DNA of 64,000 nucleotides, taken from an uncultured Acidobacteriota bacterium. GTDB taxonomy: Bacteria > Acidobacteriota > Vicinamibacteria > Vicinamibacterales > SCN-69-37. The position numbers and the translations under genes were made by a program. The stretch spans positions 1,959,207 to 2,023,206 of the forward strand of contig CAVXSP010000001.1 in the NCBI GenBank assembly GCA_963764505.1. Reading direction: 5' to 3'. The notes below the pieces were generated by a model. That model ran no database searches and was not told where the DNA came from. It worked only from the letters and a program-made list of their open reading frames with translations. Positions 1,095 to 64,000 of the stretch are shown here, one piece after another (the first letter of the stretch is position 1; every line of letters begins with the position of its first letter).

Positions 1095-2207
1095 ATGACG
1101 CCAGGCGTGCAGCGCAGACCAGGGCAGTTCAGCCTCCGGATGAAGCTGACGGCCGCCGCCGCGGCGGCCGTCGTCGGATTCGCGTTGTGCGAGATCGCCG
1201 CGCGGATCGCGTTCCCGGCGCCGCCCGACAGCATGCGCGAGCCGCAGATCCTCTATCTCGCCGATCCGGACGTGGGCTTCCTGCAGGCGCCGAACCAGAA
1301 AGGCTGGATCGACGGCGGGCGGGCGACGGTCAACGCGCTCGGGCTGCGCGGCGATCTGCCGGCGATGCCGAAGCCGGCCGGGTCGATCCGGGTGCTCGCC
1401 ATCGGCGATTCGACGACCTTCGGCTGGGGCGTGAACGACGACGAGACGTATTGCGTTCAGCTCGAGCGACTGCTCGAGCACGCCTACCCGGGCCGCCGGC
1501 TGAGCGTCGTGAATGGGGGCGTCAGCGCCTACGACCTCAGGCACGACGCGGAGCTCCTGCGGCACTTCGCCTCGAAGCTGCAGCCGGACATCGTGCTCGT
1601 CGGCCTGTACTGGAACGATCTGCCGTACGAGGCGTCGCCGCCCGACGGACCTGCGCCGACCGCGCCGGTCGTGGAGAAGCCGTCCCTGGGCGCGCCGGCC
1701 GGATCGTCCAAGCCGTTCCGCATGGGCAATCAGTTCTCCCAGGTGAACCGGATCCTGCGCCGGAGCCGCATGCTGTACATCCTGCGGCAAGCCTGGTCGC
1801 GCGCCGTGGCGCCGACCGCGGCCGCGAGCAACCTCGAGCAGTGGGAGACCGCGGTCCTCGAAGGGCACCACTCGCCCGCGATCGACGCCGGCTGGCGGGA
1901 CATCGGCCGCACGCTCGACGAGATCCGCGCGATGGGGGAAGCGGGTGGCTTCGCCGTGGGCGTCGTGATCATGCCGATCCGTGCCCAGGTCGAGCAGAGC
2001 TACCCGCGCGCGGAGTATCAGACGCGCGTGAGCGCGATGGCCAGATCGCTGGGGATGTTCGTCGTCGACCCCTTGCCGTACTTCGTGCGTCAACCGGATC
2101 ATGCGAGCCTGTTCATCCCGTACGATCGGATGCACTTCTCGCGCCTGGGCAACGCGCAGGTGGCCGAGGCGGCATTCGAGGCGCTCAGGGCACGGGGGGA
2201 ATTTTGA
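1095..2207 (+). CDS. SGNH/GDSL-family hydrolase (probable polysaccharide esterase/acyl-modifying enzyme) with N-terminal membrane anchor
   Basis: Block I motif VLAIGDSTTFGWGV, then NGGVSAY, and a C-terminal DRMHFS (DxxH). Alternative start at MKLTAAAAA (1140). Paralog of 32084..33244. Confidence 0.75.
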   Translation: MTPGVQRRPGQFSLRMKLTAAAAAAVVGFALCEIAARIAFPAPPDSMREPQILYLADPDVGFLQAPNQKGWIDGGRATVNALGLRGDLPAMPKPAGSIRVLAIGDSTTFGWGVNDDETYCVQLERLLEHAYPGRRLSVVNGGVSAYDLRHDAELLRHFASKLQPDIVLVGLYWNDLPYEASPPDGPAPTAPVVEKPSLGAPAGSSKPFRMGNQFSQVNRILRRSRMLYILRQAWSRAVAPTAAASNLEQWETAVLEGHHSPAIDAGWRDIGRTLDEIRAMGEAGGFAVGVVIMPIRAQVEQSYPRAEYQTRVSAMARSLGMFVVDPLPYFVRQPDHASLFIPYDRMHFSRLGNAQVAEAAFEALRARGEF

Positions 2208-2352
2208 GCGCGACAATCTCACGGCGCAGCTCCGACGAGCGGCGACCTCCGTGCCCTTGAACATCGTCGAGGGCGCAGGCTGCGCGACGAATCGCGACGT
2301 CGGTCGGTTCCTCGGTTACGCTCGCAACTCAGAACTCACAACTGAGAACTAG
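2206..2352 (+). pseudogene. Remnant of a four-helix-bundle (23S rRNA intervening-sequence protein family) gene
   Basis: Only about 45 codons (NLTAQLRRAATSVPLNIVEGAGCATNRDVGRFLGYA) resemble the central QLRRAaxSIxxNIAEG block of that family. There is no N-terminus (the upstream frame overlaps the SGNH gene) and the C-terminus is truncated. Confidence 0.4.
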
Positions 2353-2373
2353 AACCTTCTTGGAGCAATCAAC

Positions 2374-2559
2374 ATGGAACAGTTCGAACAGCTCGCGAAG
2401 ACTGAAGGCAAGGGCAGCATCGTCGGCGAGTTCTGGTTCTTCCTGGGCCAGACGAAGAAGTGGTGGCTCCTGCCGATCGTCGCCATTCTGGTGATCTTCG
2501 GCGTGCTGATGCTGCTGTCCGGCACGGCGGCCGCGCCGTTCATCTACACGCTGTTCTGA
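2374..2559 (+). CDS. DUF5989-like small membrane protein (third member of the carbamoyltransferase/SxtJ cassette)
   Basis: Encodes 61 aa, GEFWFFLGQTKKWWLLPIVAILVIFGVLMLL. GGAG lies 8 nt upstream of the ATG. The pattern is typical of the small protein that follows SxtJ-like genes. Confidence 0.6.
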   Translation: MEQFEQLAKTEGKGSIVGEFWFFLGQTKKWWLLPIVAILVIFGVLMLLSGTAAAPFIYTLF

Positions 2560-2580
2560 ACCGGTCCGTCCGGGCGCGGT

Positions 2581-3895
2581 ATGGCCACGGACGGGTCCGG
2601 ACCAGAGGTCGTGCGTCCGTCCGAGATTGCCGTGAGCGGGTTGCTGGTGATCGGCCTGATCCAGGCCGGTCCGGCCGGCGCGGCTCGATTCGTCGCTCAG
2701 GTGCCATGGGCAGCATCCGGGCCGTGGGTCGCGGTCGACACGCACGTCCACACGACGTTCTCGGACGGCGCGAGCACGGTCGAGGACGTCGTCGAGCGCG
2801 CGCGCCAGTTCGGCTGCCAGGGGCTGGCCATCACGGACCATGCGGACAGGGCGCTCGGCGCGGCCACGCCGGAGTACCGGGCCGCCATCGAAGCCGCCCG
2901 CACCGCCCACGCCGGATTTCCGATTCTCGCCGGCCTGGAGTGGAACGTGCCGCCCCGCGGCGGGGACGAGCATGCCACCGTTCTGGTTTCGCCGGGGGCG
3001 GAGAGCTGGGCGACCCTCGCCGAGTTCAAGCGCCGGTTCGACGATTTCGACCTGGCGCCGGGGCGCCAGAAGCCGAACGTCGGCGAGGCGCTGGCGTGGC
3101 TGGCGGCGCAGGGCGGCGACAATGCCCTCGTCATCGACAACCACCCGAGCCGCCGGGATGGCTCCAGCATGGACAACGTGCAAGACATGCTCGGATGGCG
3201 GGCGGTCAACCGGCTGGTCATCGGGTTCGAAGGGGCGCCGGGTCATCAAGGGCACGAGCCCATCGGGTCGTACGATCGAGTGGAGAAGACAGTTGACCGC
3301 TGGGATCCCGCCGTGGCTCGCGTCGGGGACGCGTGGGACACGCTGCTCCAGCGCGGCGTCGACGTGTGGGGCGCCCTGGCGGGGTCGGATTTTCACAGCG
3401 CGGCCGCGGACGATCCGAACAATCGCTGGCCGTGCCAGTTCGCCGAGACGTGGCTGCGCGTGCCGGACGTGACCGAGGGCGGTCTCCTGCGGGCGCTGCG
3501 TGCGGGCACCGCGTTTGCCGAGCACGGACACATCGTCCGAGACGTCGAGTTCACGGTCGACGCGCCTGGGCTTCCGCGGCCGGCCGTCTCGGGCGAAGTC
3601 ATCACGGCGCCCGCGGGGTCGCGGGTCACCACGCGGCTGGAGTTCCGGGTGCCGTTGCGCGACTGGGAAGGCCGGCCCAATCGCGTCGACCAGGTGGAAT
3701 TCGTGGTGATCTCCTCGACCAGATGTCCAGGTCCTGACCGAGGCGGTACACGCGGGCGGGCGGCAGATCGTCTCCAGAGCGCTCGTCGTGCCGCCTGGCG
3801 GACTCGTGGTTCGAGCGAGAGGACGCCGCGTCGTCGAGGACGGTCCCGATCTGATGTTCTACACGAATCCCATCCGCGTGAAAGGCGGGACGTAG
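2581..3895 (+). pseudogene. PHP-domain metal-dependent phosphoesterase, secreted/anchored; frame broken by one indel near 3712-3722
   Basis: Shows VDTHVHTTFSDGAS, ITDH and DNHPSR motifs. The frame-1 product turns Arg/Pro-rich after ...VEFVVISST. Frame 2 continues plausibly (DVQVLTEAVHAGG...DLMFYTNPIRVKGGT*) to the TAG at 3893..3895. Confidence 0.7.
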
Positions 3896-3899
3896 CCGC

Positions 3900-5375
3900 A
3901 TGCGCGATCGAGCCCTGCCCGCCGGCGCGGGGCCGGAGCGGGTGTCGGCGCGCGAAGCCGCCAGGCTCCGGATCTGGTGCGCCTGGCTCGCGCTTGGCGT
4001 CGCGGCCTTTGCGGCCTACATCAGTCTCGTGCCCTTCAACTTCCGCATGCCGCACGACGGCTGGGCGTCGGCGCTGTCCCGGACGCTCGAGACGAGGATC
4101 GGCATTTCCGGCAACTTTCTCGCCAATGGCGTGATGCTGGCGCCGTTCGGCTTCTTCGGCGCCGGCGCGCTCCTGTCAGCGCGGTCCGGGCTGCTGCGCA
4201 AGGCGTTCACCGCCGTGCTGATTCTGCTCGTCTCGTGCGGCATCAGCATCTCGATCGAGGCGCTCCAGGTGTTCGTGCCCGGACGGACGCCCTCGCTCGG
4301 AGACATCACGGCGCAGACGGCCGGCACGATCGCCGGGCTCGCCGCGTGGTTCGTCCTCGGCCGCGATGTCCGGACGTGGTCGGCGAAGCTGGCCTCGGGC
4401 ACGGGGGATGCGCTGCGGTCGATGCTCGCCGCCTACGCCGTCGTGCGGGGGTTCATCCTGCTGCATCCCCTCGACGTGACGGTGGACCTCGGGGCGCTCG
4501 CGGGCCGCTGGCACAGCGGCCGAATCGTGATCAACCCGCTCCATTCGGATGCCTTCCACTGGGATCTCATTCCGTCGGTGCTGTCCGACTTCGTGCTCGC
4601 GGTGCCCATCGGCCTCTTCGCGGCGCTTGCGGGCACGCTGCCGGGGATGCGGCGGCAGGCCGGACCGGCCCTCGCCCTCGGGGCGCTCTATTTCACGTTC
4701 GGCGAGCTCGCGCAGGTGTTGATCCAATCCAGGACCGCCGACACGTTCGACCTCCTCGTGAACCTCTCCGGCATGGCGGTCGGCGTGTGGCTCGTCTCGC
4801 TCATGCTCGACAGGCCGGCCGGGTCGCCGATCCGTTCCAGATCGCTCGTGCCGGTCGCCGGTGTCCTGTGCTGCGCGGGCCTCTACATCGCGTACAACTG
4901 GAGCCCGTACGATTTCTCCGTCAGCCTCAGCGTGTTCCACCATCGGTTCCGTCCGCTCGTGGCGGCGCCCTTTCGCGGTTACTACGAGAATCCTGATTTC
5001 AAGGCGCTGGGCGACGTTCTCGTGAAGACGGCGATGACCGTGCCGATCGGCGTCTTCCTGGAGCGCTGGATCCGCTTCGGGCGCACCCCGTACAGGCGCC
5101 TGCTGATGGCGATTGTCCTCGCCGCCTGCGGCGCCTTCTTCGCCGCCGTGGAGATCGGCCAGGTGTTCATCCCGTCACGCTATCCGGATGACACGGACGT
5201 GCTGCTGGCGATCGGGGGCGTGTGGCTGGGCATCCGAACGGCGCGCCCGTTCGATCGGCCCGCGGTCCCCCCGGCTGCCGGTGATGTGGGTGCCGGCGAT
5301 CGCCGGTCGACTACAGCGGTTTCCGGAATCGCGGAGTGCGCTGCAGGCCCTCACTCGCGAGCCGCGCGCCAGTAA
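3900..5375 (+). CDS. VanZ-family membrane protein with two VanZ-like domains
   Basis: Two copies of the E-x-x-Q-x-F-x-P-x-R...D signature (IEALQVFVPGRTPSLGDI and VEIGQVFIPSRYPDDTDV) sit within a polytopic hydrophobic protein. The last ~20 codons are encoded by the left arm of the 5315..5434 hairpin. Confidence 0.75.
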   Translation: MRDRALPAGAGPERVSAREAARLRIWCAWLALGVAAFAAYISLVPFNFRMPHDGWASALSRTLETRIGISGNFLANGVMLAPFGFFGAGALLSARSGLLRKAFTAVLILLVSCGISISIEALQVFVPGRTPSLGDITAQTAGTIAGLAAWFVLGRDVRTWSAKLASGTGDALRSMLAAYAVVRGFILLHPLDVTVDLGALAGRWHSGRIVINPLHSDAFHWDLIPSVLSDFVLAVPIGLFAALAGTLPGMRRQAGPALALGALYFTFGELAQVLIQSRTADTFDLLVNLSGMAVGVWLVSLMLDRPAGSPIRSRSLVPVAGVLCCAGLYIAYNWSPYDFSVSLSVFHHRFRPLVAAPFRGYYENPDFKALGDVLVKTAMTVPIGVFLERWIRFGRTPYRRLLMAIVLAACGAFFAAVEIGQVFIPSRYPDDTDVLLAIGGVWLGIRTARPFDRPAVPPAAGDVGAGDRRSTTAVSGIAECAAGPHSRAARQ

Positions 5376-5434
5376 ACCGGCGCGCGTGCTCGCGATTCGG
5401 GCCTGCAGCGCACTCCACGATTCCGGAAACCGCT
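5315..5434. repeat. About 120-nt near-perfect hairpin / inverted repeat between convergent genes
   Basis: A 36-bp outer stem (5315..5350 vs 5399..5434) has 1 mismatch. An inner stem of about 16 bp (gcgagccgcgcgcc / ggcgcgcgtgctcgc) has one bulge. No flanking T-tract. Confidence 0.85.
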
Positions 5435-5470
5435 ATGGTCGCGTGCCCTGATTCGGGCAGCGTCTCAACC

Positions 5471-6727
5471 TCAACCGGCCGGCAGGCGTCGGCCCTCGCC
5501 ATTCGGGACGAGCGGCTGACGTGCGGGCGCGGCGGACGGATCCTGCAGGGCATCCTCGAGAATCCGCTGCAGATCGGACAGGCGCGCCTCCCAGGCGAGT
5601 CCCTCCATTCGCGCCCGACCGGCCGCGCGCGCCCGGGTCGACGGCGACGCACGCAGGAGCTCCGACACGGCATCGGCGAACGTCGCCGCCTCGCCGGCGG
5701 CGATGCAGCCGGGACGCGCCTCCGCCGGCAGGCCATCGAGCACGACGGGCGTCGTCACGACCGGCAGGCCGGCGGCGAGCGCCTCGAGCACCTTGTTCTG
5801 CACGCCGCGCGCGATCTGGAGCGGGGCGACGGCGATCGCCGCCTCCCAGAGGAACGGCTGCACGGCGGGAACCTCGCCGACGAGATCGACGGACCGGTCG
5901 CGCGACGCCACCCGCCGGAGGCGGTCGGTCGGCCGCGCGCCGACGATCCGGAACCGGGCGGTCGGAGCCGCGGCGCGCACCTGCGGCCAGACGGCGTCGA
6001 GGAACCAGAGGACGGCGGACTCGTTCGGCGCGTAGTCCAGGACGCCGCAGAACACGACATCCATCGAGGGCGCGGGGAGGCCGGCCGCGGGCCGCCGAAA
6101 CGCGGCGACATCGACGCCGTTCTCGACGACGGCGATCGGCGCGCCGGGCGCGATCCGCTGCAGCGCCTCCCGCTCGCGCTCGTTGACGACGAGCGTCATG
6201 CGGGCGCGTGCCGCGGCTTCGGCCTCGAAGGTCCGCAGCGTCTCGGCCTCGCGCCGGTAGATCCAGCGCCTGGGCGCGGACGCGCGGCGTCCCAGGTCCG
6301 CCCACTTCGCGGAGTCGACGTCGACCATGTCGAGGACGAAGGGCAACGCCGAGAGCGGCGGCTCGAGGGCGAAGCGCGCCATTCCGGAGCAGTAGGCCAG
6401 GACGAGGTCCGGAGGGCTGGCCTCGATCAGGCCGGCGAGCCCGCGGCGGAGCCCGGGCGCGTCGAGGAGCAGGTGAGTGAGCGGACGCCGCGAGAACAGC
6501 CCGGCGGCGGCGCGCCCGAGGTTGGCAGCCGGCGACGTCCGCACCGCGACCGTCCTGGTCGCGAACGGGACGCGGCTCGCCCGTGCCGCCTCGTCCGCGT
6601 CGTGCACCAGCGAACAGAGGGACACGTCGGCGAACCGGGAGAGCGCCTGCATCACGTAGTAGGCGCGGATCCGATCGCCGCGGTTGGGCGCGTAGGGCAG
6701 CCGGTGCGTCAGGAACAGGACGTTCAT
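5471..6727 (-). CDS. GT4 glycosyltransferase resembling the PEP-CTERM/EpsH1-system-associated sugar transferase subgroup
   Basis: The N-terminus MNVLFLTHRLPYAPNRGDRIRAYYV is the characteristic P-N-[KR]-GD-[KR]-IR start of that subgroup. The C-terminal half contains the GT4 E-x7-E region (QNKVLEALAAGLPVV). Confidence 0.8.
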   Translation of the reverse strand: MNVLFLTHRLPYAPNRGDRIRAYYVMQALSRFADVSLCSLVHDADEAARASRVPFATRTVAVRTSPAANLGRAAAGLFSRRPLTHLLLDAPGLRRGLAGLIEASPPDLVLAYCSGMARFALEPPLSALPFVLDMVDVDSAKWADLGRRASAPRRWIYRREAETLRTFEAEAAARARMTLVVNEREREALQRIAPGAPIAVVENGVDVAAFRRPAAGLPAPSMDVVFCGVLDYAPNESAVLWFLDAVWPQVRAAAPTARFRIVGARPTDRLRRVASRDRSVDLVGEVPAVQPFLWEAAIAVAPLQIARGVQNKVLEALAAGLPVVTTPVVLDGLPAEARPGCIAAGEAATFADAVSELLRASPSTRARAAGRARMEGLAWEARLSDLQRILEDALQDPSAAPARQPLVPNGEGRRLPAG

Positions 6728-6731
6728 GCGC

Positions 6732-7349
6732 TCACGAGTCGGCGCCTGCCGCCGGCTGCGCCAGCGTCACGGGCCTGCGGCTGCGGACCACGCGCGCGGG
6801 GATGCCGGCCGCGACGGCGTAGTCCGGGATCGGCCGGGTGACGACCGATCCCGCGCCGATCACGCAGTGCGCGCCGACGTCGGCCATGATGATGGCGGCG
6901 TCGCCGACCCAGGTGCCCTCGCCGATCCGCACGCGCCGCCGGGTTCCCGGTTGATCGCGGATGGGACGATCGAGGTCGTCGATGCCGTGCGTCGACGGAC
7001 CGCTCGGCACGTGCACGCCCGAGGCGAGCAGCACGTCCCGCTCGAGACGAGCCCATCCGATCTGGCATCGCGGTCCGACGTAGACACGTTCGTCAATCCA
7101 GACGCGGGGATCGCTGAAGAGGGCGCCGAACTGCACGCAGGCGGACGGCGCGCAGTGTGCGGCGCGCGAGAGGAACGCGCGGCGCGCATACTGTCCGAGC
7201 AGGCCCGGCACGAGCGCGAGCGCCTGCATCGAGCCCTCGAACGCGCGGATGTCGTCCTGCAGCCGTCGCCGAATCGCGTAGGAGAGCAGCGACGGCGCCA
7301 CCATCGCGAGGGCTGCCCCGCGGAGCGCAGCCTTGAGTCCCTCACGCAC
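6732..7349 (-). CDS. Hexapeptide-repeat (LbH) acyl/acetyltransferase
   Basis: Contains VRIGEGTWVGDAAIIMADVGAHCVIGAGSVVTRPIPDYAVAAGIPARV, a left-handed beta-helix repeat pattern. GTG start. Overlaps the upstream stop by 8 nt. Confidence 0.8.
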   Translation of the reverse strand: MREGLKAALRGAALAMVAPSLLSYAIRRRLQDDIRAFEGSMQALALVPGLLGQYARRAFLSRAAHCAPSACVQFGALFSDPRVWIDERVYVGPRCQIGWARLERDVLLASGVHVPSGPSTHGIDDLDRPIRDQPGTRRRVRIGEGTWVGDAAIIMADVGAHCVIGAGSVVTRPIPDYAVAAGIPARVVRSRRPVTLAQPAAGADS

Positions 7350-8563
7350 GGGCGGTGCTCGACGACGGCGACTCGGCGTCTTCGGTCAGGGTGCGCGGGG
7401 CCGCGCCGCGCGCCGGTCCGGCGTCCCGCCCCGCCAGCTCCTCGTAGATGGCTTCGAGCCGCCGCGTGCGCGCGGCGAACGAGAGGTCGTCTTCGATCCG
7501 CCGTCGCGCTAGGAGCGCCCGCTGGCGCGCCGTCGCGGGCTCGCGCAGCGCGCGCAGCATCGAGGAGGCCAGCGCCTCCACGTCCCCGGCCGGGATCACG
7601 ATCCCGTGCACGTCGGGGAGGGCGAGCTCGCGCGTGCCGCCGACGTCGGTGGCGACCAGGGGCGTTTCCATCGCCATGGCCTCGAGCACGGCGTTGGGCG
7701 TGCCTTCGTAGTCCGACGACTGCACGAACAGATCGAAGGCGTGGTGCAGCTCGACGACGTCGGTCCGATGTCCGAGGAACTGGCAGCGGCCGGCCAGGCC
7801 GAGCCGGGCCGAGAGCGACGCCAGTTCCTCGCGGAGCGCGCCATCGCCGGCAATCGCCAGCCGCGCCCGCGGCTCCTTCGCCGACACGCGGGCGAACGCC
7901 TCGAGCAGCAGATCGAATCGCTTCTGACGCTCCAGGCGCCCGACGCTGCCAATCACGATCTCGCCGGCGGCATACCCGAGCGCACGCCGGCTTCCGGACA
8001 CGCGGTCGGTCCGGCGCCGGAAAGTCGACGGATCGATCGCGTTCAGGAGCACCGTGACGCGCTCGGGCCGGGCGCCGTGCGCTTCGAGGACCCGCTTGAT
8101 GTCGCTCGATACGGCAACGACGCGGGGAAAACGGGCGAGCAGCCGCTTGTCGAACGGATAGTAGAGCCGTCGCTCGCGCCAGCTGTCGCCCGTCCAGCCG
8201 TGGGCGGTCGCGAGCGCGGCCACGCCGGTGCGGCGCGCCAGCAGGAGCGCCAGCAGGTTGGTCTTGTATTCGTGGGCGTGGACGACGTCGATCCGCCGGG
8301 CGCGGACCAGACGGACCAGCGCGTGCCAGATGCCAGGGTCGAAGGACTGGCGCTCGAGAATCTCTTCGGTACTGAATGCCCAGCGCGGCCGCCTGGTCCG
8401 CCGGCCGGAAGGCGTCGTCCCGCCGGTCGCGCAGATAGCAGACCAGGACCTCGATGCGCCCGGGCCCGGCGAGCGCGGCGCCGAGCATGATGGTCTTCTC
8501 CGGCCCGCCGCCCGTGCCGCGGACGCTGCGCAGTTCCAGGACGCGGACGGGAGACGCAGACAT
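7342..8563 (-). pseudogene. GT4 glycosyltransferase, frame broken by one indel near 8375
   Basis: The N-terminus MSASPVRVLELRSVRGTGGGPEKTIMLGAA...ALGIQY is in one frame. The rest (TEEILERQSFDPGIWHALVRLVRARRIDVVHAHEYK...GRLERQKRFDLLLEAF...SDYEGTPNAVLEAMAMETPLVATDVGG) is in another. Confidence 0.8.
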
Positions 8564-8570
8564 GCCCGTG

Positions 8571-9530
8571 TCAGCTCTTGCGCCGCAGCGCGTGACCGAA
8601 AGGGGCCAGGAGCGCGAGCGCGCGCGCGGCGTCGTAGACCGCGCTCACGAGCAGGACCTCGAGCGCGGCTCTGGCCGATTCGGCGCGCCGCCGGCGCAGC
8701 AGCGACGCCGCCCGGATCAGCACCAGGGCGCCGACCAGGGCCAGGCCGGCCGCCGCCACGCGCCACCCGCCGGCCAGCCAGGTGGCCGCGCCGAGCGCGA
8801 CCGCGGCGAGGCCGACCAGGTGCAGCAGCGGAATGGCCACGCTTGGCGCCGAGGCGAGCCGCAGGTCGCGCAAGCTCACGCGCAGGTTGTCGCGGCCGCG
8901 CCAGAGCTCGCCGAAGAACAGCGCCTTCAGCGTGGTCGGGTCGCCGCGGTGCACGCTGCGCAGGCGGTCGGAGGCGACCAGACGTCCGCCGCGCTGCCTG
9001 AGGCGCTGGCAGAAGTCGACGTCCTCGCAGGTATCGAGCGAGGCATCGAACCCGCCGAGCGCGTCGAAGTCCGCCCGCCGCACGATCAGATTCCCGCTGG
9101 GGAGCCAGTCGACGTCGCGGGACCCGGCGGCATGGCGCCTGAATCGATCGTAGGTGCGCTGCACCCAGGTGCCCTCGTCGGGCGCCGAATACGGCGCGCC
9201 GGCGGCCGCCGTGCCGGCGCGCTCGAACAGTGCGAGCGCGGCCGCGACCCATCCGCGATCGATCTCATGATCGGCGTCGATGAAGGCGAGCAGGGATCCG
9301 GCGGCGGCCGCAGCGCCGGCGTTGCGCAGCTCGGCGACGCGTCCGCTCGTCAGGGGGATGACGGCGGCGCCGGCTTCGCGGGCGACCGCCGCCGACTCGT
9401 CGGTCGAGGCGTTGTCGATCACGACGATCTCGTGCCCCGCCGGTCCCGCGCTCTCGCGAATCGCGGCGAGGCAGCGGCGCAGGTGCGCCGCGTCGTTCCG
9501 GACGGGAATGACGAACGAGATCACGGGCAT
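8571..9530 (-). CDS. GT2 glycosyltransferase with C-terminal membrane segments
   Basis: Shows MPVISFVIPVRNDAAHLRRCL...VVIDNASTDES...FIDADH, the GT-A DXD pattern. ATG at 9530 shares 1 nt with the upstream stop. Confidence 0.85.
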   Translation of the reverse strand: MPVISFVIPVRNDAAHLRRCLAAIRESAGPAGHEIVVIDNASTDESAAVAREAGAAVIPLTSGRVAELRNAGAAAAAGSLLAFIDADHEIDRGWVAAALALFERAGTAAAGAPYSAPDEGTWVQRTYDRFRRHAAGSRDVDWLPSGNLIVRRADFDALGGFDASLDTCEDVDFCQRLRQRGGRLVASDRLRSVHRGDPTTLKALFFGELWRGRDNLRVSLRDLRLASAPSVAIPLLHLVGLAAVALGAATWLAGGWRVAAAGLALVGALVLIRAASLLRRRRAESARAALEVLLVSAVYDAARALALLAPFGHALRRKS

Positions 9531-56922: not shown

Positions 56923-57689
56923 ATGCCGAAGGATGACGCGTTCTTCCACATCGGCGACGTCTTCGCCAAGGAAGTCAATCGCAACTACCTGTACTTCGTC
57001 TTGGAGCTGAATGTCGCGGCGCTCGATCGGCACCGGGTGGCCGCACGTCAGGCCGGCATCGCGCCGCCGAGTTACACGGCGTTCGCCGTCCATGCGATCG
57101 GCAACGCCCTCCGCGAGCACCCGGATCTCAATTGCATGATTTGCGAGATGCCTTTTTCCAGGGGGTTGAGACCCTGGACGACATCACGGCAACCGTGGCG
57201 GTCGAGCGCGAGGTCGACGGAGTCGACATGGTCTTGGCACTCCCGATTCGTCATGTCGACCAGAAGTCTCTGGCTGAAATTCATGCCGAGCTGAAAGCCA
57301 TGACGGAGAACGAGGTGACGGCGCGGGCCGAGGTCCGTCAGTTGCTCGCCTTGAATACCCTTGCGCGATATTCTCCCCTGCTGGCCGGCCTGGTGACGAA
57401 GTTGCCGCGTCTGTCCAAGGACATGTGGATGAAATATCGGAACGGCTCGTTCGTCGTGACCTCTCCAGGAAAGTACGGCGGCGCTGACGTGATTATTCCG
57501 ACGTGGCCCTGGCCCCTCACGTTCGCGTTCGGTTCAATCAAACCCCGGCCGGTGGTCGAGGACAGTGTGGTCGTGGCCAGAAACACGATGCGAGGGACGC
57601 TCGCCGTCGATCGTCGACTGGCGAACGGCGCACCGCTCGCGAGGTTCGCCGAACGCGTTCGTGTTCTGCTCGAAGGCGAGGGAACCTGA
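56923..57689 (+). pseudogene. Second stand-alone E2-type (CAT-fold) acyltransferase-like protein with a degenerate catalytic motif; frame break in the T5 run 57153..57157
   Basis: Shows ...YTAFAVHAIGNALREHPDLNCMICEMPF / FQGVETLDDITATVAVERE...LALPIRHVDQKSLAEI... The catalytic position reads VDRRLANGAP instead of DHxxxDG. Adding one T restores MPFFQGVE. Confidence 0.65.
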
Positions 57690-57763
57690 CGATCGTCGGA
57701 ATGCACCAGCCGGCTGGTATGATGAGCCGCTCTTCCAGACCGCTCCTGAATGGAGGTCGGACC

Positions 57764-58241
57764 ATGATGCGTAGCGTTCGCAAAGGTGCTGCGACGGCCG
57801 GGCTCGCGGCATTGTGCCTGTTCCTGAACACGCCTGCGGCGCGGGCGCTGCAGCAGACTCTGACGGTCTTCACCGCCTCGGGGTCAATAGTCTCTCAGGA
57901 GTTCTGTTCGCCGACGGAGGTCTGCCAGGTCGCGCTCATTTCAGGGCGGGCTACGCAGTTCGGCGCCTTTGCCGGTGTCTTGTCCGAACGGGTGGACCTC
58001 CAAACCGGTACCTACACCGGGACGGGTAAGTTCACGTTCAGCGGCGGGAGCACGATCAGCACCGAGTACCGAGGGCCAGGTGGTCTCGACGCCGTCCGGG
58101 GCGGCAGTCTTTTCCGAACAGCACCAGATCGTCGGAGGGACAGGCCGGTTTGCGGAGGCAACCGGACAATTGGCAGTGGCCGGTCTGGCGGATGCGACCG
58201 GAAAGGTCTCCGTTATCGGCGTCGGCCGACTCAGTTGGTGA
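57764..58241 (+). pseudogene. Small secreted protein of unknown function, one frame break near 58070
   Basis: GGAGG lies 7 nt before the ATG. The signal peptide is MMRSVRKGAATAGLAALCLFLNTPAARA|LQ. The second half (QVVSTPSGAAVFSEQHQIVGGTGRFAEATGQLAVAG...) is in another frame. Confidence 0.45.
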
Positions 58242-58245
58242 TCCG

Positions 58246-58678
58246 CTAAGACTCGCCGGCGGCGAGCATCTCCCGCATCTCCCGCATCTCCCGCACCTCC
58301 CGCATCTCCGCCTCGAGCAGCGCGGCGTCCTCGATCAGCCGCTCGATCTGCCGGCACTGCCGCGACACGACGACGGAGAACGACACGGACGCGAGGAACA
58401 TGAAAAAGATCTGCACGAGCAGCAGCGCCGCGGGCGGGCAATAAATCCGAGCGCCAAGGCTACGCGATCGAGCAGTCCGCGGGCCATGGAGAAGCCCAGC
58501 AGCGCCAGCGCGCAGAGAATCCAGATGAACAGGTACTCCTCGGTGAGCGCTTCTGGCGCCGGACCAGGTCGAGCACGACCACGAGCAGCGTCGCGCTCAC
58601 GACTGTTAGCGAACGGGCAAATGCGGCCACTGCGGAACGTCTGAAAACCGGCCACGGCAGGTAGGGGCGATCGGACAT
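58246..58678 (-). pseudogene. Small membrane protein with a C-terminal (EMR)n repeat tail, two frame breaks
   Basis: The pieces MSDRPYLPWPVFRRSAVAAFARSLTVVSATLLVVVLDLV / PEALTEEYLFIWILCALALLGFSMARGLLDRVALALGFI / AALLLVQIFFMFLASVSFSVVVSRQCRQIERLIEDAALLEAEMREVREMREMREMLAAGES* lie in three frames. Confidence 0.4.
58267..58311. repeat. 9-bp tandem repeat (catctcccg x3, then cacctcccg and catctccgc)
   Basis: Read directly. On the minus strand it encodes the EMR/EVR repeat tail of the small membrane protein. Confidence 0.9.
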
Positions 58679-58702
58679 CGTTGAGGGTTTCCGCCTTCAA
58701 GG

Positions 58703-59189
58703 ATGTCGATGGCCAATTACCTGCAAATGCCGAAGAAGCAACAAGTTCTCGCCCTCCTCGAGCTCGGCTGGACGTACCGCCGCATTGAAGCGGAGACGGG
58801 CGTTCGGCGTGAGACCGTCAGCCGGTACGACCGCGCGCGCCAATCAAATGCGGCCAAAACGTTCCCCGGCTCGGATCCGTCGCCGCCGACATCGCTCCCA
58901 GCGACGGACCGAGACGGACGACGCAAATGCGGCCAAAGCGTTCGCCGGCTCGCCGTCAAATCCGGCCAAAACGTTCCCCGGCTCGACGACCCCGCCGCGG
59001 TTTGCCGCGGCCGCCTATCGGACAGCGATCACCGAAAAGCTGGACGCCGGCCTGAGCCTGCAGCGCGTCTGGCAAGACCTGGTCGAGGAGTACAGCTACG
59101 GCGCCAGCTACGAATCGGTGAAGCGGTTCGTGCGGACGCTGACGCCGACGCGCCGCGCCGTCGGCGTGTTCCACTGTGCGCCGGCCGAG
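58703..59189 (+). pseudogene. istA: IS21-family transposase IstA, 5' part (HTH region), one frame break about 58880-58920
   Basis: MSMANYLQMPKKQQVLALLELGWTYRRIEAETGVRRETVSRY continues in another frame as ...AAAYRTAITEKLDAGLSLQRVWQDLVEEYSYGASYESVKRFVRTL...VFHCAPAE, and then the RIT end begins. Confidence 0.8.
58845..58985 (+). repeat. Three about 29-bp direct repeats (caaatgcggccaaaacgttccccggctcg and 2 variants) inside istA
   Basis: The copies lie at 58845..58873, 58924..58952 and 58957..58985. Each encodes (S/A)N(A/P)AK(T/A)F(P/A)GS. The first copy is in a different frame from the other two. Confidence 0.8.
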
Positions 59190-59218
59190 ATTATGGTGAG
59201 TCCCCCGTTATGGTGAGT
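59189..59218. repeat. Left terminal inverted repeat of the RIT element
   Basis: gaTTATGGTGAGtcccccgTTATGGTGAGt is the perfect reverse complement of 62646..62675. Confidence 0.9.
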
Positions 59219-59324
59219 TGCGTGGGTCCTCTCGCCTGCCTGCCGGCGTAGCGTCGCCGTGATCCCGACCGGCTCCTTCCCATAATCCCTGCTTCTGAGG
59301 CGTCAGGCCTCGAAGGAGGGAGAC

Positions 59325-60581
59325 ATGTTCGCTGGGTACTATTTCGCCGATCAGGTTCAGCGCTATCGGGCGTCACCACACAAGCCGCGGATCGATCACG
59401 TCGCGCAAGCGCTGGTCGGTCGCCAGTACCTGAAGGAGGTCGTCGAGCAGCATCTGCGGGAGTGGCTGCGGTTCACCGCCGACTGCGATGCGCGTGGCAT
59501 CGCCCTGCCGCAGACTGTTCACGCACGGGAGGTGGAGGAGTATGTGGCACGGCGGCTGCCGCGGGGCAGCGCGAGCCGGCGCCGATTCGTGCGGGCGTCG
59601 GTCCGCATCTTTCTCGAAACGGATGCAGACGGCGTGTTTCGTCGACGAATCGGGACGGCGGTGGCCCCCGCGGTGCCGGTGTGGATCGAGCCCGCCCTTC
59701 AGGCGTACACCGCGTTTCTCCGGGCGCATCGTGGCCTCGCCGCGCGCACGGTGCACAAGCGCGTCTGGCAGTTGGCGCGCATCGCCGACTTCTGGGACCA
59801 CACAGGGCTGGCGACGTTGCCGGAGCTGGGCGTCTCACACATTCAGCAGTTCTTTCTTCAGCTCGCGCATCAGAAGCCTGCGACCCGGCGGACATATGGC
59901 GTCACGCTCAGGAGTTTCTTGCGGTGGGCGTACCAAGAGGGCTGGGTGCCGACGGATCTCCGAGCGGCGGTGATCACCGGTCGCCACATGCGGCAGGCGC
60001 AGGTGCGGGATGTCCTGACGGCCGAAGATGTCGCCCGCGTGGTGGCGGCGGTCGATCGGTCGCGTGCGGTCGGCCGGCGAGACTACGCCGTGCTCTTGCT
60101 CGCGATTCGCTACGGGATGCGCCCGTCGGACATTCGGCAGCTCCGCCTCGACGATGTGCAGTGGCGACGGGGCCTGATCGCGATTCGACAAGCGAAGACC
60201 GGCCGACCGTTGACGCTGCCGTTGCTGCCCGAGATTGCCGACGCGTTGGCGGCCTATCTTCGGGATGGCCGTCCCAAGACGGCGGCGCGCGAGATCTTCG
60301 TCCGCCACCGCGCGCCGTTTGCGCCATTCGTCCCGACCAATAATCTGAGCGCGATTGTGCGCCCGCTGTTCCGCCGGACCGGTCTCGACCAGCGATCCGG
60401 CGGTCGCGGGCTGTACGTGTTTCGGCACACGCTGGCGAGCGGACTGCTCGCGGCCGAGTGTCCGATCAAGTCGATCGCCGATGTGCTCGGCCATCAGTCG
60501 ACGGACACGACGATGGAATACGCGACGATCAATCTGGCCGCGCTCCGCCGCGTGGCGCTGTCGGAAGCGGAGGTGCGCTCG
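59325..60581 (+). CDS. ritA: Tyrosine recombinase, RitA-like (reads through in frame into the next recombinase)
   Basis: AAGGAGGGAGAC precedes the ATG. The N-terminal SAM-like/core-binding region is followed by RRDYAVLLLAIRYGMRPSD, FRHTLASGLL and LGHQSTDTTMEY. There is no stop before the ATG at 60582. Confidence 0.75.
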
Positions 60582-61586
60582 ATGAGCGCGCCCACATCGC
60601 TTTCGGTGCCCACATTCTCGTCGCCGCTGGCGGACGCCCTCTCGCGCTTTCTCGCGTGCAAGCGAGCCGCGGGCTGTCGCTACGACGACGAAGCGCGCGC
60701 CCTGCGGCTCCTCGACCAGTTCCTGACCACGACCCTCACTCCGGAGGACCCGATGATCACGTTGGACGTGGTGCGACGCTATGTCGCGCGCCGAGGCGAG
60801 GAATCGGAGACCACGCGCGCGCACCGACTCAGCCTGATCCGACAGGTCTGCCGCTTCGTCGCCCTCGAGCAACCGCGGACGGCCGTGCCGGCGCCGCGGT
60901 TCTTGGGCATTCATCGCCGCACGTTCGTGGCGCGGGTGATGTCACAGGAGGAGGGCCAGCGATTCCTGGCCGCGTGCGAGCACCTGGTGACGAGACCGTG
61001 GTCTCCGATCCGCGACACGGTCTTGGGCACCGCCCTGGTGCTGCTGTACCTCACCGGCCTGCGGACGGGCGAAGTGCTCGGGCTCACCATTGCGGACGTC
61101 GACCTCGTGAGCGCCGTGCTGCGCGTGCGCGACACCAAGTTCGGCAAGTCTCGTCTCGTTCCCCTGGCGTCCGACGTCGCGGCCCGACTTGACCGCTGCC
61201 GCAGGACGATCGAGCGCCGCCTGGGCTCGCGCAGCCCGGACGCGCCGTTCTTTGCGACGGCGTCCGGCCGCCCGTACTCACACACCGCGCTCTCCGCCGC
61301 ATTCCGCCAAGTGCTCGCGCGCGCCGATATCCCTCGCCACAGCGCCGGCCGTCCACTTCGCCTCCACGATCTCCGTCACGGCTTTGCCGTGCTCAGGCTG
61401 TTGCTGTGGTACCAGCAGGACGCCGATCTCGGGGCTCGGTTGCCGGCCTTGGCGACGTACCTGGGGCACGTGGGCTTGGCCAGCTCCCAACGGTACCTGC
61501 AGCTCACCGCCGACATGGTTGGCGAGATCTCCCGCCGGCACGAGCGCCGGTTCGGATACCTGATCAGCGAGCGAGGGCAGTCATGA
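60582..61586 (+). CDS. ritB: Tyrosine recombinase, RitB-like
   Basis: Shows LYLTGLRTGEVLGL, LHDLRHGFAV and LGHVGLASSQRY. The stop overlaps the next ATG (ATGA at 61583..61586). Confidence 0.8.
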   Translation: MSAPTSLSVPTFSSPLADALSRFLACKRAAGCRYDDEARALRLLDQFLTTTLTPEDPMITLDVVRRYVARRGEESETTRAHRLSLIRQVCRFVALEQPRTAVPAPRFLGIHRRTFVARVMSQEEGQRFLAACEHLVTRPWSPIRDTVLGTALVLLYLTGLRTGEVLGLTIADVDLVSAVLRVRDTKFGKSRLVPLASDVAARLDRCRRTIERRLGSRSPDAPFFATASGRPYSHTALSAAFRQVLARADIPRHSAGRPLRLHDLRHGFAVLRLLLWYQQDADLGARLPALATYLGHVGLASSQRYLQLTADMVGEISRRHERRFGYLISERGQS

Positions 61587-62588
61587 CCGCGCCCGATCTC
61601 GCGAGGCTCGTGACCGCCTTCTTCGTGCGCCACCTCGCCGCGGAGCACAATGCCAGTCCGCACACCACCAAGGCGTATCGAGACGCGCTCAAACTGCTGC
61701 TCCGATTCGCGGCCGCCGCCTGTCACCGACCGATCGCGGCGCTGCAGATCGAGGACTTGACCCCCGATCTGATCCTGCGATTTCTCACGGACCTCGAAAC
61801 AACGCGGCGCAATTCGGTACGGACCCGCAATGCGCGCTTGGCGGCGATTCACAGTTTCTTCCGGTACGTCCTCGACGGCCACCCCGAGTGCGCCCTCGCG
61901 TGTCATCGCGTGCTGGCCATTCCCGTGAAGAAGGCCACGCGTCCGCTGCTCGGCTACCTCACGGAAGCGGAGCTCGCCCATCTGCTCGCGCAGATGGACC
62001 GCACGACGATCGACGGGGAGCGCGACTATGTGCTGCTCGCCCTGCTGTACGACACCGGCGCCCGCATCCAAGAGTTGCTCGACCTGACGCCGAGCGATAT
62101 CCGGCTCGTATCGCCCGCCGTCGCGCGACTCCACGGCAAAGGCCGACGAGAGCGCCTCTGTCCACTGTTGCCGCAGACCGCCCGGCTCGTCAGCCGGTAT
62201 CTCGCCTGCGTGGGTCGTGCCGCTCGATGATCGCGGTCCCTTGTTTCGCAATCGGTACGGGCAGCCGCTGAAGCGCCACGGTGCCCGCTATCTGTTGATG
62301 AAATACCTCGACCGCGCCCGCGCGTCGATGCCCAGTCTCCGCCGATCCGGCATCAGCCCACACACGATCCGACACACCAAGGCCATGCACCTGCTTCAGG
62401 CCGGCATTCCGTTGATCACCATCAAGGATTTTCTCGGTCATGCCGACGTGAAGTCCACGGAGGTGTACGTGCAGATTGATGTCGGCATGAAGCGCGACGC
62501 CCTGGCCCTCGCCGGATCCCCGACGTCGAGCACGCCGAAGGCGCCGCGTCTATCGAAAGACCTCCTGACCTGGTTGGAAGCGCTGTAG
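61583..62588 (+). pseudogene. ritC: Tyrosine recombinase, RitC-like, one frame break near 62215
   Basis: ...LLALLYDTGARIQELLDL...RYLACVGR is then out of frame with LDDRGPLFRNRYGQPL...SPHTIRHTKAMHLLQAG...LGHADVKSTEVY. Confidence 0.8.
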
Positions 62589-62601
62589 GAATTATGTGAA
62601 G

Positions 62602-62641
62602 CACGTCGGGAAGGACACCGCGTCATCCCGACGTGTTTCTT
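62602..62641 (+). terminator. Hairpin + T-rich tract after ritC
   Basis: A perfect 10-bp stem (cacgtcggga / tcccgacgtg) with a 14-nt loop is followed by TTTCTT. Confidence 0.55.
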
Positions 62642-62645
62642 CCGG

Positions 62646-62675
62646 ACTCACCATAACGGGGGACTCACCATAATC
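62646..62675. repeat. Right terminal inverted repeat of the RIT element
   Basis: aCTCACCATAAcgggggaCTCACCATAAtc. It is followed by a further TTATGGTGAG/CTCGCCATAA pair at 62680..62699. Confidence 0.9.
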
Positions 62676-62700
62676 GTCGTTATGGTGAGCTCGCCATAAC

Positions 62701-63794
62701 GATGAGGCCCAGGTCGATTTCTTCAAAGGCGCGCCGACCCTGGAGCCGCGCACGGGGGAATGGCGTCGCCCGTGGGTCTTTCGGATGACGTTGTGCCACT
62801 CGCGGCACGGCTACGAAGAAGCGGTGTGGGATCAGAAGCTCGAGACGTTTCTCCGGCTGCACGAGCGCGCGTTCCGCGACTTCGGGGGCGTCCCGAAGGT
62901 GATTCGCCACGACAATCTCAAAGCCGCCGTCGTCCGCGCGTGCTTCTACGATCCCGACAGTCACGAGGTCTACCTCGCGTTCGCTCGGCACTGGGGCTTC
63001 ACGCCCTTGCCGACGCAACCGCGCCATCCGCAAGAAAACGGGAAGCAGGAGCGGAGCGGGGGCTACGTGAAGGGCAACGCGCTGAAGGGCCGTCGGTTCG
63101 ACAGCCTCGAGGCGCACAATGCCCATCTGCGCCACTGGAATCGGACGGTGGCGCGGCTCCGCATTCACGGCACGACGCGGCGCCAGGTGTGGACGCACTT
63201 CGTCGAGATGGAGCAACGCGTGCTGCAGCCGCTCGCCGCGACCGCGTTTCCGCTCTTCACGGCCGGCGAGCGCACCGTGCACGCCGACGGCCACGTCGAA
63301 GTGGACGGCAGCTTCTATCCCGTCCCCCTGGCTCTGCTCGGGCGAAAAGTCCGCGTGCAGTGGGACACGCACCTGGTCCGCGTGTTTCACGCGGAGGCGC
63401 TCGTGGCGGTCCACAAGAAATCGCCGCCGGCCTGTTCGCGCCGCGTCCCGGCGAGGCCGAGACCTCGACGCGCCAACAGGCGTTTGTCGATCGCTTGCTC
63501 GGGCAGTGCGCGCGCGTCGGTCCGGCCTTGGCGCAATGGGCCGAAGCGGCCCTGGCAGCCCGTGGCGTCCGCGCGCTGCGGTTGATTCAAGGCGTCCTCG
63601 GATTGACGCGGCGGCATCCGCGCGAGCAGGTGCTGCGCGCCATCAGCGAGGCCCAGGCCCGCCAGCATTTCCGCTATCAAACCATTCGTCAGCTCGTCGA
63701 GCGGACGCCGACGCCCGCGGCGCCGGCGCTCGTCCACGACGATCCGGCGATTCGTCCGATGACCCAATACACCCTGGAGGATTTCTTGCGATGA
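62701..63794 (+). pseudogene. istA: IS21-family transposase IstA, 3' part (DDE/rve domain), one frame break in the A3 run 63418..63420
   Basis: Shows DEAQVDFFKG...MTLCHSRHGYEEAVWDQK...VIRHDNLKAAV...PRHPQENGKQER. Then ...AVHKK is out of frame with IAAGLFAPRPGEAE...QYTLEDFLR*. Confidence 0.85.
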
Positions 63795-64000
63795 ATGCTC
63801 AGCTCACCACGCGCTTACGTCACCTTCGGCTGTCCGGCATGGTCGATGCCTTACCCGGGCGCATCGCCCAAGCCGAAGCCGCGCCGTTGCCGCATCTGGA
63901 ATTCTTGGAGTTGCTCGTGGAGGACGAGCTCGGGCGCCGGGCCGATCGGCTGTATGCGCGCCGCCTGAAACAGGCCGGCATCGTCACGGTCACCAGCCTG
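63791..64000 (+). CDS. istB: IS21-family helper ATPase IstB, N-terminal part (continues beyond the window)
   Basis: MNAQLTTRLRHLRLSGMVDALPGRIAQAEAAPLPHLEFLELLVEDELGRRADRLYARRLKQAG is a typical IstB N-terminus. It forms an ATGA overlap with the istA stop. Confidence 0.85.
   Translation, partial: MNAQLTTRLRHLRLSGMVDALPGRIAQAEAAPLPHLEFLELLVEDELGRRADRLYARRLKQAGIVTVTSL

Follow-up and report, generated by a model that had tools for sequence, protein, structure and literature searches.

The stretch of DNA analysed here (the window) comprises 64,000 nucleotides from an uncultured Acidobacteriota bacterium (contig CAVXSP010000001.1, positions 1,959,207 to 2,023,206). Its right part, 58604-64000, contains the left four-fifths of an insertion sequence of the IS21 family, whose right end lies beyond the window. 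The transposase gene istA of this IS21 is interrupted by a recombinase-in-trio (RIT) element of an acidobacterial clade, with the gene order ritA-ritB-ritC. The inserted DNA is 59191-62699 and consists of a left inverted repeat (IRL), the three rit genes, a right inverted repeat (IRR), an inverted hexamer, and a palindrome of 20 bp (PAL). The 6-bp target, CGACGA, stands as a direct duplication on both sides of the insert, and the insertion destroys the IstA transposase. About 140 related loci, given below as L numbers, were compared with the window. Features lie on the forward strand unless otherwise stated.

The IS21 left end (58604..58661) starts with TGTTAGCGAACGGG... (TGTTAGCG..) and carries a terminal inverted repeat of about 58 nt. 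This repeat is seen in L123, a complete IS21 contig of 2650 bp, in which positions 1-58 match 2649-2591 inverted and position 1 aligns with window position 58604. The 5' part of istA (58709..59190) encodes the helix-turn-helix (HTH) and a linker as far as ..VFHCAPA, with 96% DNA identity to L123. The 3' part (62700..63794), recognised from its open reading frame (ORF), Pfam, and alignment, encodes ..DEAQVDFF.., the DDE domain, and the C terminus. The two halves flanking the insert give rve and Mu-transpos_C_2 matches. The gene istB starts in an ATGA overlap with istA, has a partial match to NF038214, and leaves the window at its end (63791..64000). L123 encodes an intact IstA of 523 aa (P0121), which is 91% identical to the repaired window IstA and passes the NCBIfam IS21 transposase model NF033546 with 221 bits against a cut-off of 160. 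An IstA DDE transposase followed by an IstB helper ATPase, together with terminal inverted repeats beginning TG, characterises the IS21 family, and all of these are present here. The flanks had already been assigned to IS21 in a preliminary description of this DNA, made without database searches, and that assignment holds. Within istA, 58844-58998 contains three copies of a 43-nt repeat, which encode the peptide (S)NAAKTFPGS in the linker after the HTH. Since the repeat is also present in the intact P0121, it is native to the IS21 subgroup of the window.

The uninterrupted copy in L123 supplies the empty site and, with the window, forms the filled-site and empty-site pair that the preliminary description had anticipated. 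The empty site reads GCCGGC-CGACGA-AGCGCAG, without PAL, and when 59185 is joined to 62700 (59186-62699 removed), the window aligns with L123 free of gaps. Across the insertion joint, P0121 reads CAPADEAQVDFF. The inserted segment is lacking from the 120 listed intact IstA homologues (511-525 aa), none of which natively contains it. The preliminary description was right in kind and wrong in three details. It had set the precise boundaries at 59190..62700, had seen no target-site duplication, and had taken the deletion of that interval to rebuild a normal IstA. The deletion gives ..CAPAE-DEAQVDFF.., which is one residue more than ..CAPADEAQVDFF.. in P0121. The insert in fact spans 59191-62699 together with one 6-bp copy out of the two. 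CGACGA, the target, is present in three places, as CGA-GA on the left, as TCGTCG inverted inside, and as CGATGA on the right. With its boundaries corrected, the finding is real.

Taken literally, the preliminary version was a 3511-bp element with inverted repeats only and no duplication, the removal of which restores istA. It could appeal to the perfection of the inverted repeats and to the fact that the deletion is in frame. It is hardly credible, given that intact homologues are one residue shorter at the joint, that the 6-bp duplication is evident from the empty-site DNA, that the insert includes 62676-62699, a segment beyond the right inverted repeat, and that istA has two more frameshifts. 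Two other accounts of the joint were rejected. PAL as a pre-existing part of the istA target fails on the empty site of L123, where PAL is missing, and a 3489-bp deletion between the direct repeats at 59191 and 62680 would leave an in-frame TAA.

The inverted repeats IRL (59189..59218) and IRR (62646..62675) are perfect over 30 bp, as previously described. Their chance expectation in 6 kb is about 1e-11 by own estimate, and the next-best inverted repeats are 70-89% complementary. The terminal repeat is not a peculiarity of this copy and is conserved in relatives. IRL contains two direct 10-mers TTATGGTGAG, site A (59191-59200) and site B (59208-59217), with 7 nt between them, and IRR contains the corresponding sites B' (62647-62656) and A' (62664-62673). 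In all, TTATGGTGAG is counted 6 times against 0.56 expected: two copies in each inverted repeat and two forming PAL. From site A to site A' the element measures 3483 bp, which agrees with the RIT unit length of about 3.5 kb. An inner site of the TTATG type, CTTCCCATAA, lies on the reverse strand about 85 nt inside the left end (59276..59285), and the block around it, CTCCTTCCCATAATCCCTGC, is conserved in the window, L001, L126, and L130. It is mirrored, again some 85 nt in from the right end, by TTATGTGAAG (62592..62601), which is likewise inverted and stands just past the ritC stop; the block CATAATTCCTA is conserved in all reverse-complemented right ends.

PAL (62680..62699, without strand) is the palindrome TTATGGTGAG|CTCGCCATAA with one mismatch. 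It begins four bases past the right inverted repeat, is contained in the insert, and is missing from the empty site. In L130 it is the perfect variant TTATGGCGAG|CTCGCCATAA. Between site A' and PAL lies the internal hexamer T' (62674..62679), TCGTCG, the reverse complement of CGACGA, and A', T', and the left PAL half compose a 10-6-10 core-like site, CTCACCATAA-TCGTCG-TTATGGTGAG. The left target copy (59186..59190) is CGA-GA with one base missing at ~59188, as judged from CGACGA in L123 and an intact CGACGA in L130. The right target copy (62700..62705) is CGATGA in the alignments with L123 and L130.

The insert comprises three same-strand tyrosine-recombinase coding regions, all of which match PF00589. 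The ritA gene (59325..60578) has 418-419 codons and rests on its ORF, the PF00589 match, and a match to RitA of plasmid pHG1. The ritB gene (60582..61586) has 334 codons, and its product is 39% identical to pHG1 RitB (E 2e-66). The ritC gene (61583..62588) has 334 codons once an extra base is removed, and its product is 48% identical to pHG1 RitC (E 2e-97). In BLASTP the trio gives one-to-one best hits to pHG1 RitA, RitB, and RitC (E 5e-54, 2e-66, and 2e-97), and cross matches between Rit subfamilies are 1e-15 or weaker. The subfamilies are known to differ by an extra N-terminal (second core-binding) domain in RitA and an extra C-terminal helix in RitC (PMC8138268). At the sequence level, the window RitA has an N-terminal extension of about 120 extra residues that can be aligned with pHG1 RitA, the RitC C-terminal motif ..LLTWLEAL aligns with ..LLEWLHSL of pHG1, and a RitB-specific insertion is present in the alignment. 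These matches and subfamily features bear out the earlier identification as RIT. NCBIfam contains no RIT-specific model, and the best hits there are XerC/XerD, below the curated cut-off.

The catalytic set R...HxxR...H...Y is complete in RitB (HDLR) and RitC (HTIR). In this acidobacterial clade RitA has YVFR (around LYVFRH), in which tyrosine replaces the first histidine; L001 has the same replacement, and pHG1 RitA has HSLR. The R...HxxR...Y signature, which had been claimed for each ORF, is found with its HxxR box in RitB and RitC and is altered at that box in RitA. The previously noted ATGA overlap of the second and third genes is found at 61583-61586, and a ritA/ritB ATGA overlap is kept in L001, L002, and L130, in line with the 4-8 bp by which adjacent rit genes overlap. 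A RitA search of genome contigs gave 4 loci, all in metagenome-assembled genomes (MAGs), with the window's own genome not among them, and the RitA relatives with named sources are Acidobacteriota MAGs. Mobility of the RIT as a unit is suggested by comparative signs, namely the empty site, independent insertions, and one circularly permuted contig.

Several frames in the window are broken. ritA and ritB form one 753-aa frame (59325..61586), in contrast to the listed RitA homologues (n=120), all of which are separate proteins of 417-424 aa, mostly 419. DNA alignment traces the fusion to one extra base at ~60579, which destroys the usual ATGA stop/start overlap. One extra base at ~62219 splits ritC into 61583..62230 and 62217..62588, so that ritC as sequenced is interrupted between Arg-I and HxxR. 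The three same-strand recombinase ORFs described earlier are therefore sound as coding regions, though not as separate ORFs. Alignment with L123 reveals two further frameshifts in istA, +1 at ~58904 and -1 at ~63419, the former of which falls within the 43-nt repeat region.

L130 (ENA ERZ25039533 contig_50358) is syntenic with the window and has the same chromosomal flank, IS21 junction, and nested RIT. Its left hexamer CGACGA is intact and its ritA and ritB are separate, and it has a different, independent ritC frameshift at ~62300. At 56923-58238 the window has two ordinary genes, one for a 2-oxoacid-dehydrogenase-like protein of 283 aa and one for a protein of 158 aa. Each is a single ORF in L130, and in the window 1-nt indels split them (~57171, ~57596, and ~58153). 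The indel density is 3 in 1.7 kb in this flank versus 5 in 5.4 kb in IS21 and RIT, and is thus at least as high in the flank. An error rate of about one indel per kb is probable for the window. Since ordinary flank genes are hit by the same kind and density of 1-nt indels, those that fuse ritA with ritB and break ritC and istA are most likely (long-read) assembly errors rather than decay. The dN/dS values between the window and L130 are 0.16 for ritA, 0.21 for ritB, and 0.10 for ritC, and values this low indicate that the differences accumulated under purifying selection.

The same data bear on the rival view that the window element is a dead, decaying fossil, in which real mutations produced the fusion, the frameshift in ritC, the damage to the left hexamer, and the mismatch in PAL. 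Five 1-nt indels in the 5.4 kb of IS21 and RIT, set against intact relatives, would agree with decay, and so would the independent ritC frameshift in L130. This view is unlikely, although it keeps some weight, since two neighbouring chromosomal genes that are intact in L130 carry indels of like kind and density, the dN/dS of all three rit genes is low, and the inverted repeats are perfect.

The identity between the window and L130 is mosaic, with 87% in the left part of IS21, 88-91% in the rit genes, and 99.5-100% in the right part of IS21, and it switches at ~62712, the PAL/target boundary. Compared with L123, the left part of the window is 96% and the right part 85% identical. The mosaic suggests gene conversion or a RIT-associated exchange between IS21 copies.

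Every examinable member of the window's RitA clade is located in an IS21 istA gene, at the same codon position, G/A-E/D|E/Q-x-Q-V/I/A-D. The more distant RITs of L021, L064, L095, and L118 occupy the same codon position. The insertion point is four codons before the aspartate of QVD, which, from its position relative to the rve profile, is taken as the presumptive first catalytic aspartate of the DDE triad. At least 10 divergent IstA flanks are hit, including QVDYGEGPMV, QIDWGAFGS, QVDWGYFGK, QADWAHFG, QVDWMQRT, QVDFFKGAPT, and others. By the author's tally, the rit genes of istA insertions are on the same strand as istA in 5 cases and on the opposite strand in 5, and in all of them PAL is found on the 3' side of istA. 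The 6-bp target sequence, T, co-varies with the local host istA sequence. The istA motif is a recurrent and specific target of the window's RIT clade and of neighbouring clades.

A shared insertion point could also come from common descent, in which one ancient IS21::RIT composite, the product of a single event, was spread by IS21 transposition in trans or vertically. The window and L130 do share the chromosomal site and the nested structure, and the Tn::RIT composites of Acidithiobacillus ferrooxidans are near-identical and in the same location (Van Houdt et al.). Common descent is very improbable: the IstA proteins that are interrupted diverge widely and come from different IS21 subgroups, the hexamer changes along with the istA of each host, both gene orientations occur, RITs with only 45-67% RitA/RitC identity (L021, L064, and L095) use the same codon position, and L001 has a second, unrelated RIT elsewhere in the same istA.

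Other RIT families have other neighbours. One family, with terminal repeats TTATGTAGAG..TTATGGTGAG, is found in tyrosine-recombinase genes at L-R|H-S-F-A-T, the HxxR box (L013, L029, L051, L063, L073, L083, L087, L093, L109, and L117). Other families stand beside flanks that translate to ..DIPFMKGYT (L065 and L079), of which the ..FMKGYT motif is presumably that of ArdC-type antirestriction proteins. Yet others stand beside ..RRYLIWKIREAEKGR.. (L015, L030, L076, L077, L100, and L108) or in palindromic units TGGCCG-PAL-CGGCCA.

The loci used for the comparative anatomy were obtained through RitA (L001, L002, L126, and L130-L135) and by a search of metagenomes for the exact PAL 20-mer, which gave at least 120 contigs (L003-L122). 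The relatives have a single architecture, which in target orientation is N - T - [A B ... rit genes ... B' A'] - T' - PAL - T - C, where T is a 6-bp sequence varying by site and T' is its reverse complement. A perfect 6-bp duplication together with the inverted copy is seen in L002 (CGAGGA), in L001 and L131 (CGAAGA), and in L118 (CGAGCA). Reading of junctions by eye gave a distance of 6 nt between PAL and the outermost repeat, which produces 10-6-10 core-like sites such as CTCACCATAA-N6-TTATGGTGAG; the 74 distinct junctions provide no independent test of this spacing, because the rule by which they were selected requires it. The same 20-bp PAL is present in RIT families with differing terminal repeats (TTATGTGCAT, TTATGTAGAG, TTATGCGGAG, and others). 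PAL adjoins ritA in 20 junctions and ritC in 18, all families included.

Outer and inner hexamers are exact reverse complements at 37 of the 74 junctions, and they differ at two or more positions in 24; among hexamer trios, all partial match patterns occur. In L030 the hexamers are CGGCGG and CAAGCG. In L073 the outer copies AAGACA and TCGCCA represent synonymous Arg-His codons of the target motif.

The contig L022 (LGOV01030416.1, 3478 bp) is circularly permuted, with a 16-nt prefix equal to its suffix, and reads IRR-TGGCGC-PAL-TCGTCA-IRL. Either an excised RIT circle or an artefact of assembly could account for it. Contigs of 3484-3510 bp that are bounded by the repeats occur in other samples; they were rejected as circles, as they end exactly at the inverted repeats, have no prefix-suffix overlap, and are repeat-bounded unitigs. 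Many short-read contigs end at RIT repeats (L127, L136, and L137), which indicates that the source genomes contain multiple copies of the elements and that the flanks vary.

Nested and rearranged forms are also found. L001 has two unrelated RITs with different terminal repeats in one istA remnant (2105-5601 and 5855-9353), one inserted at G-E|E, the other at V-L|D-N. A separate PAL-like pair, TTGTGTGCCC|AGACACATAA, accompanies the second, whose hexamers are CCTCGA/TCGAGG. L126 contains one RIT (5842-9372) with PAL on both sides, between the outward-pointing 3' halves of two different istA genes (EEAQIDWGAF.. and EEGQVDYGGG..), and appears to have arisen by an inversion or an exchange involving two IS21::RIT copies. 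The double-PAL state is also seen in L038 and L097, which belong to other families. A further 42 PAL copies have no adjoining RIT inverted repeat (L006, L007, L012, L016, L034, L048, L072, L081, L098, and others). Several of these solo PALs lie between two inverted target-like copies, as in L034, where fragments RH(S/A)(Y/F)A.. read outwards. Solo PALs could be remnants left after PAL x PAL deletion of a double-PAL element.

A circular intermediate offers the simplest scheme for four features, namely the direct outer repeat, the inverted inner copy, the fixed side of PAL, and the occurrence of both orientations. Closure of the circular form would read ...B' A' - T' - PAL - T - A B..., so that PAL forms the centre of a long palindrome, with the predicted junction ..CTCACCATAA-N6-TTATGGTGAGCTCACCATAA-N6-TTATGGTGAG.. 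In the active 10-6-10 core, CTCACCATAA-N6-TTATGGTGAG, a spacer of 6 bp would separate one half of PAL from the outermost terminal repeat. The recombinases would make cuts staggered by 6 bp in the spacer and in the target hexamer, and recombination of the core PALright-T-A with the target N-T-C would yield N-T-[A..A']-T'-PAL-T-C. Use of the mirror core A'-T'-PALleft would give the opposite gene orientation and leave the position of PAL unchanged. Either gene orientation with a fixed PAL side is then expected, since the circle junction is symmetric and either of its mirror-image cores would be usable. The spacer would tolerate mismatches and could be imported from the previous site, like a coupling sequence of the Tn916/Tn554 type. 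Synonymous outer copies as in L073 are what one would expect had one copy been brought along from a homologous target occupied before. The junction of L022 is the one predicted for the circle.

The explanation as a whole, with a RIT in a recurrent istA target, a PAL circle with a 10-6-10 crossover, and indels as errors, is considered probable. It upholds the earlier proposal that the element entered by tyrosine-recombinase site-specific recombination and not by DDE transposition. PAL, the inverted hexamer, the ritA-ritB fusion, the ritC and istA frameshifts, and the recurrent target had gone unrecognised at that stage.

Several points weigh against this explanation. Its comparative anatomy is well supported, and its chemistry, comprising the circle, the cleavage positions, and the assignment of proteins to sites, is inferred from comparative sequence. 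L022 could be an assembly artefact, as a 16-nt overlap is unusual and inverted repeats confuse assembly graphs. The hexamer patterns are no strict test, since the model accommodates every observed combination. The PAL survey, having been seeded with the exact 20-mer, is biased to elements that share PAL. No similarity between the target arms and the 10-mers, which might have accounted for recognition of the istA motif, was found by eye. The 42 solo PALs and the double-PAL loci L038, L097, and L126 need extra events, either PAL x PAL recombination or inversion. Finally, symmetric PAL variants (TTATGGTCAG|CTGACCATAA in L001 and TTATGGCGAG|CTCGCCATAA in L130) can also be hairpin or fold-back products, and a frequent perfect 32-bp palindrome T'-PAL-T is also expected from fold-back copying.

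These last points lead to a rival route, in which a hairpin-ended intermediate, linear or single-stranded, is processed by telomere-resolvase-like chemistry. T'-PAL-T would not travel in a circle and would be made anew at each insertion, when one joint (a PAL half and the target hexamer) is copied into its inverted complement. The perfect 32-bp T'-PAL-T palindrome, target-derived bases included, in 37 of 74 junctions would follow from such copying, as would PAL variants that are often symmetric on both halves (L001 and L130). In mobilome data, RIT DNA was exonuclease-protected without detectable circle junctions, and hairpin intermediates were proposed (PMC5737581). Copying does not lead one to expect outer and inner hexamers that differ at two or more positions, as they do in 24 of 74 junctions, for example in L030. 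The same PAL in RIT families with differing terminal repeats fits a carried cis-site instead, and L022 has a closed IRR-T'-PAL-T-IRL junction with non-complementary hexamers. The hairpin route is a live though improbable rival, and the PAL-centred circle is retained as the preferred scheme.

Extended beyond the istA insertions, this scheme would make RITs in general site-specific parasites of mobile elements, with one coding motif per clade, that move via a PAL-centred circle with a coupling spacer. Examples of such motifs are IstA G-E|E-x-Q-V-D, tyrosine-recombinase L-R|H-S-F-A-T, and the ..FMKGYT flank. The extension is a tentative one, plausible yet somewhat short of probable. If true, it would be the first concrete model of RIT transposition, and it would explain orientation-independent insertion, the fixed side of PAL, solo PALs, and double-PAL rearrangements.

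RITs are widespread and already a described class, and the comparative anatomy is the useful part of this analysis. According to a 2023 account, RIT transposition had not been reproduced, and target specificity, empty-site formation, and movement were listed as untested (PMC10214605). The locus and its relatives supply an exact filled/empty pair, the size of the duplication (6 bp), the cis-element PAL, a candidate 10-6-10 crossover, and a defined istA target that is easy to clone, which opens the question of RIT movement to direct experiments. They also present a case of one mobile element specifically disabling the transposase of another, and the nested and rearranged copies (L001 and L126) suggest that RITs also drive IS21-IS21 rearrangements. 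For annotation, PAL and the inverted hexamer provide a precise rule for delimiting RIT insertions. A palindrome overlapping RIT ends was mentioned, without interpretation, by Van Houdt et al. (PMC3414803). The searchable literature, which does not include the survey of Ricker et al. 2013, gave no earlier account of the recurrent istA target, of the 6-bp duplication with an inverted copy, of a conserved PAL, or of the crossover model.

Known RITs (Van Houdt 2009/2012; Ricker 2013), such as the archetype of Cupriavidus metallidurans CH34 and the many copies on pHG1 of C. necator H16, share with the window element the order ritA-ritB-ritC, overlapping genes, a length of about 3.5 kb, terminal inverted repeats, and one-to-one similarity of the trio. 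The pHG1 RIT has like ends, with AGCGC-AAATGTGCTG|CAGCACATTT-GCGCT by its left end and the hexamer repeated at the far end. The window element differs in that its host belongs to the Acidobacteriota and not the Proteobacteria, identity is limited to 34-48%, YxxR replaces HxxR in RitA, the 10-mers of the ends have the same sequence as the PAL halves, and the target is defined as an istA codon position. In A. ferrooxidans, RIT2 sits within the gene for the transposase of Tn6049-like transposons (PMC3414803) and is likewise a RIT nested within a transposase gene that belongs to a different mobile element. Those composites are near-identical and in one location, so that independence cannot be demonstrated, whereas in the present set the same codon is interrupted in at least 10 divergent IS21 hosts.

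Among other systems, telomere resolvases (TelN, TelK, and ResT) are tyrosine-recombinase-type enzymes that act on a perfect palindrome with 6-bp staggered cuts. The window RIT has no sequence or domain evidence of such an enzyme, and the likeness is relevant to the hairpin route only. Tn916/CTnDOT and Tn554/SE/GInt, with coupling sequences of 6-7 bp, would resemble the RIT in a 6-bp staggered crossover in which the spacer need not match the target and is carried along. Tn554, SE, and GInt also have several recombinase-like proteins per element. The hexamer patterns, including the synonymous codons of L073, are compatible with coupling-sequence behaviour. In contrast to the Tn916 and Tn554 types, the window RIT lacks a homologue of Xis, TnpC, or Tfp, and RITs have symmetric inverted repeats as ends, an extra palindrome, and insertion in either orientation. 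The likeness is only a functional analogy and not membership. XerC/XerD-dif and the integrative mobile elements exploiting Xer (IMEX) are similar in their simple Xer-like recombinases and in a core of two arms of about 10-11 bp around a 6-bp spacer. The RIT differs in that it encodes its own recombinases, has a target other than dif, and possesses three paralogues.

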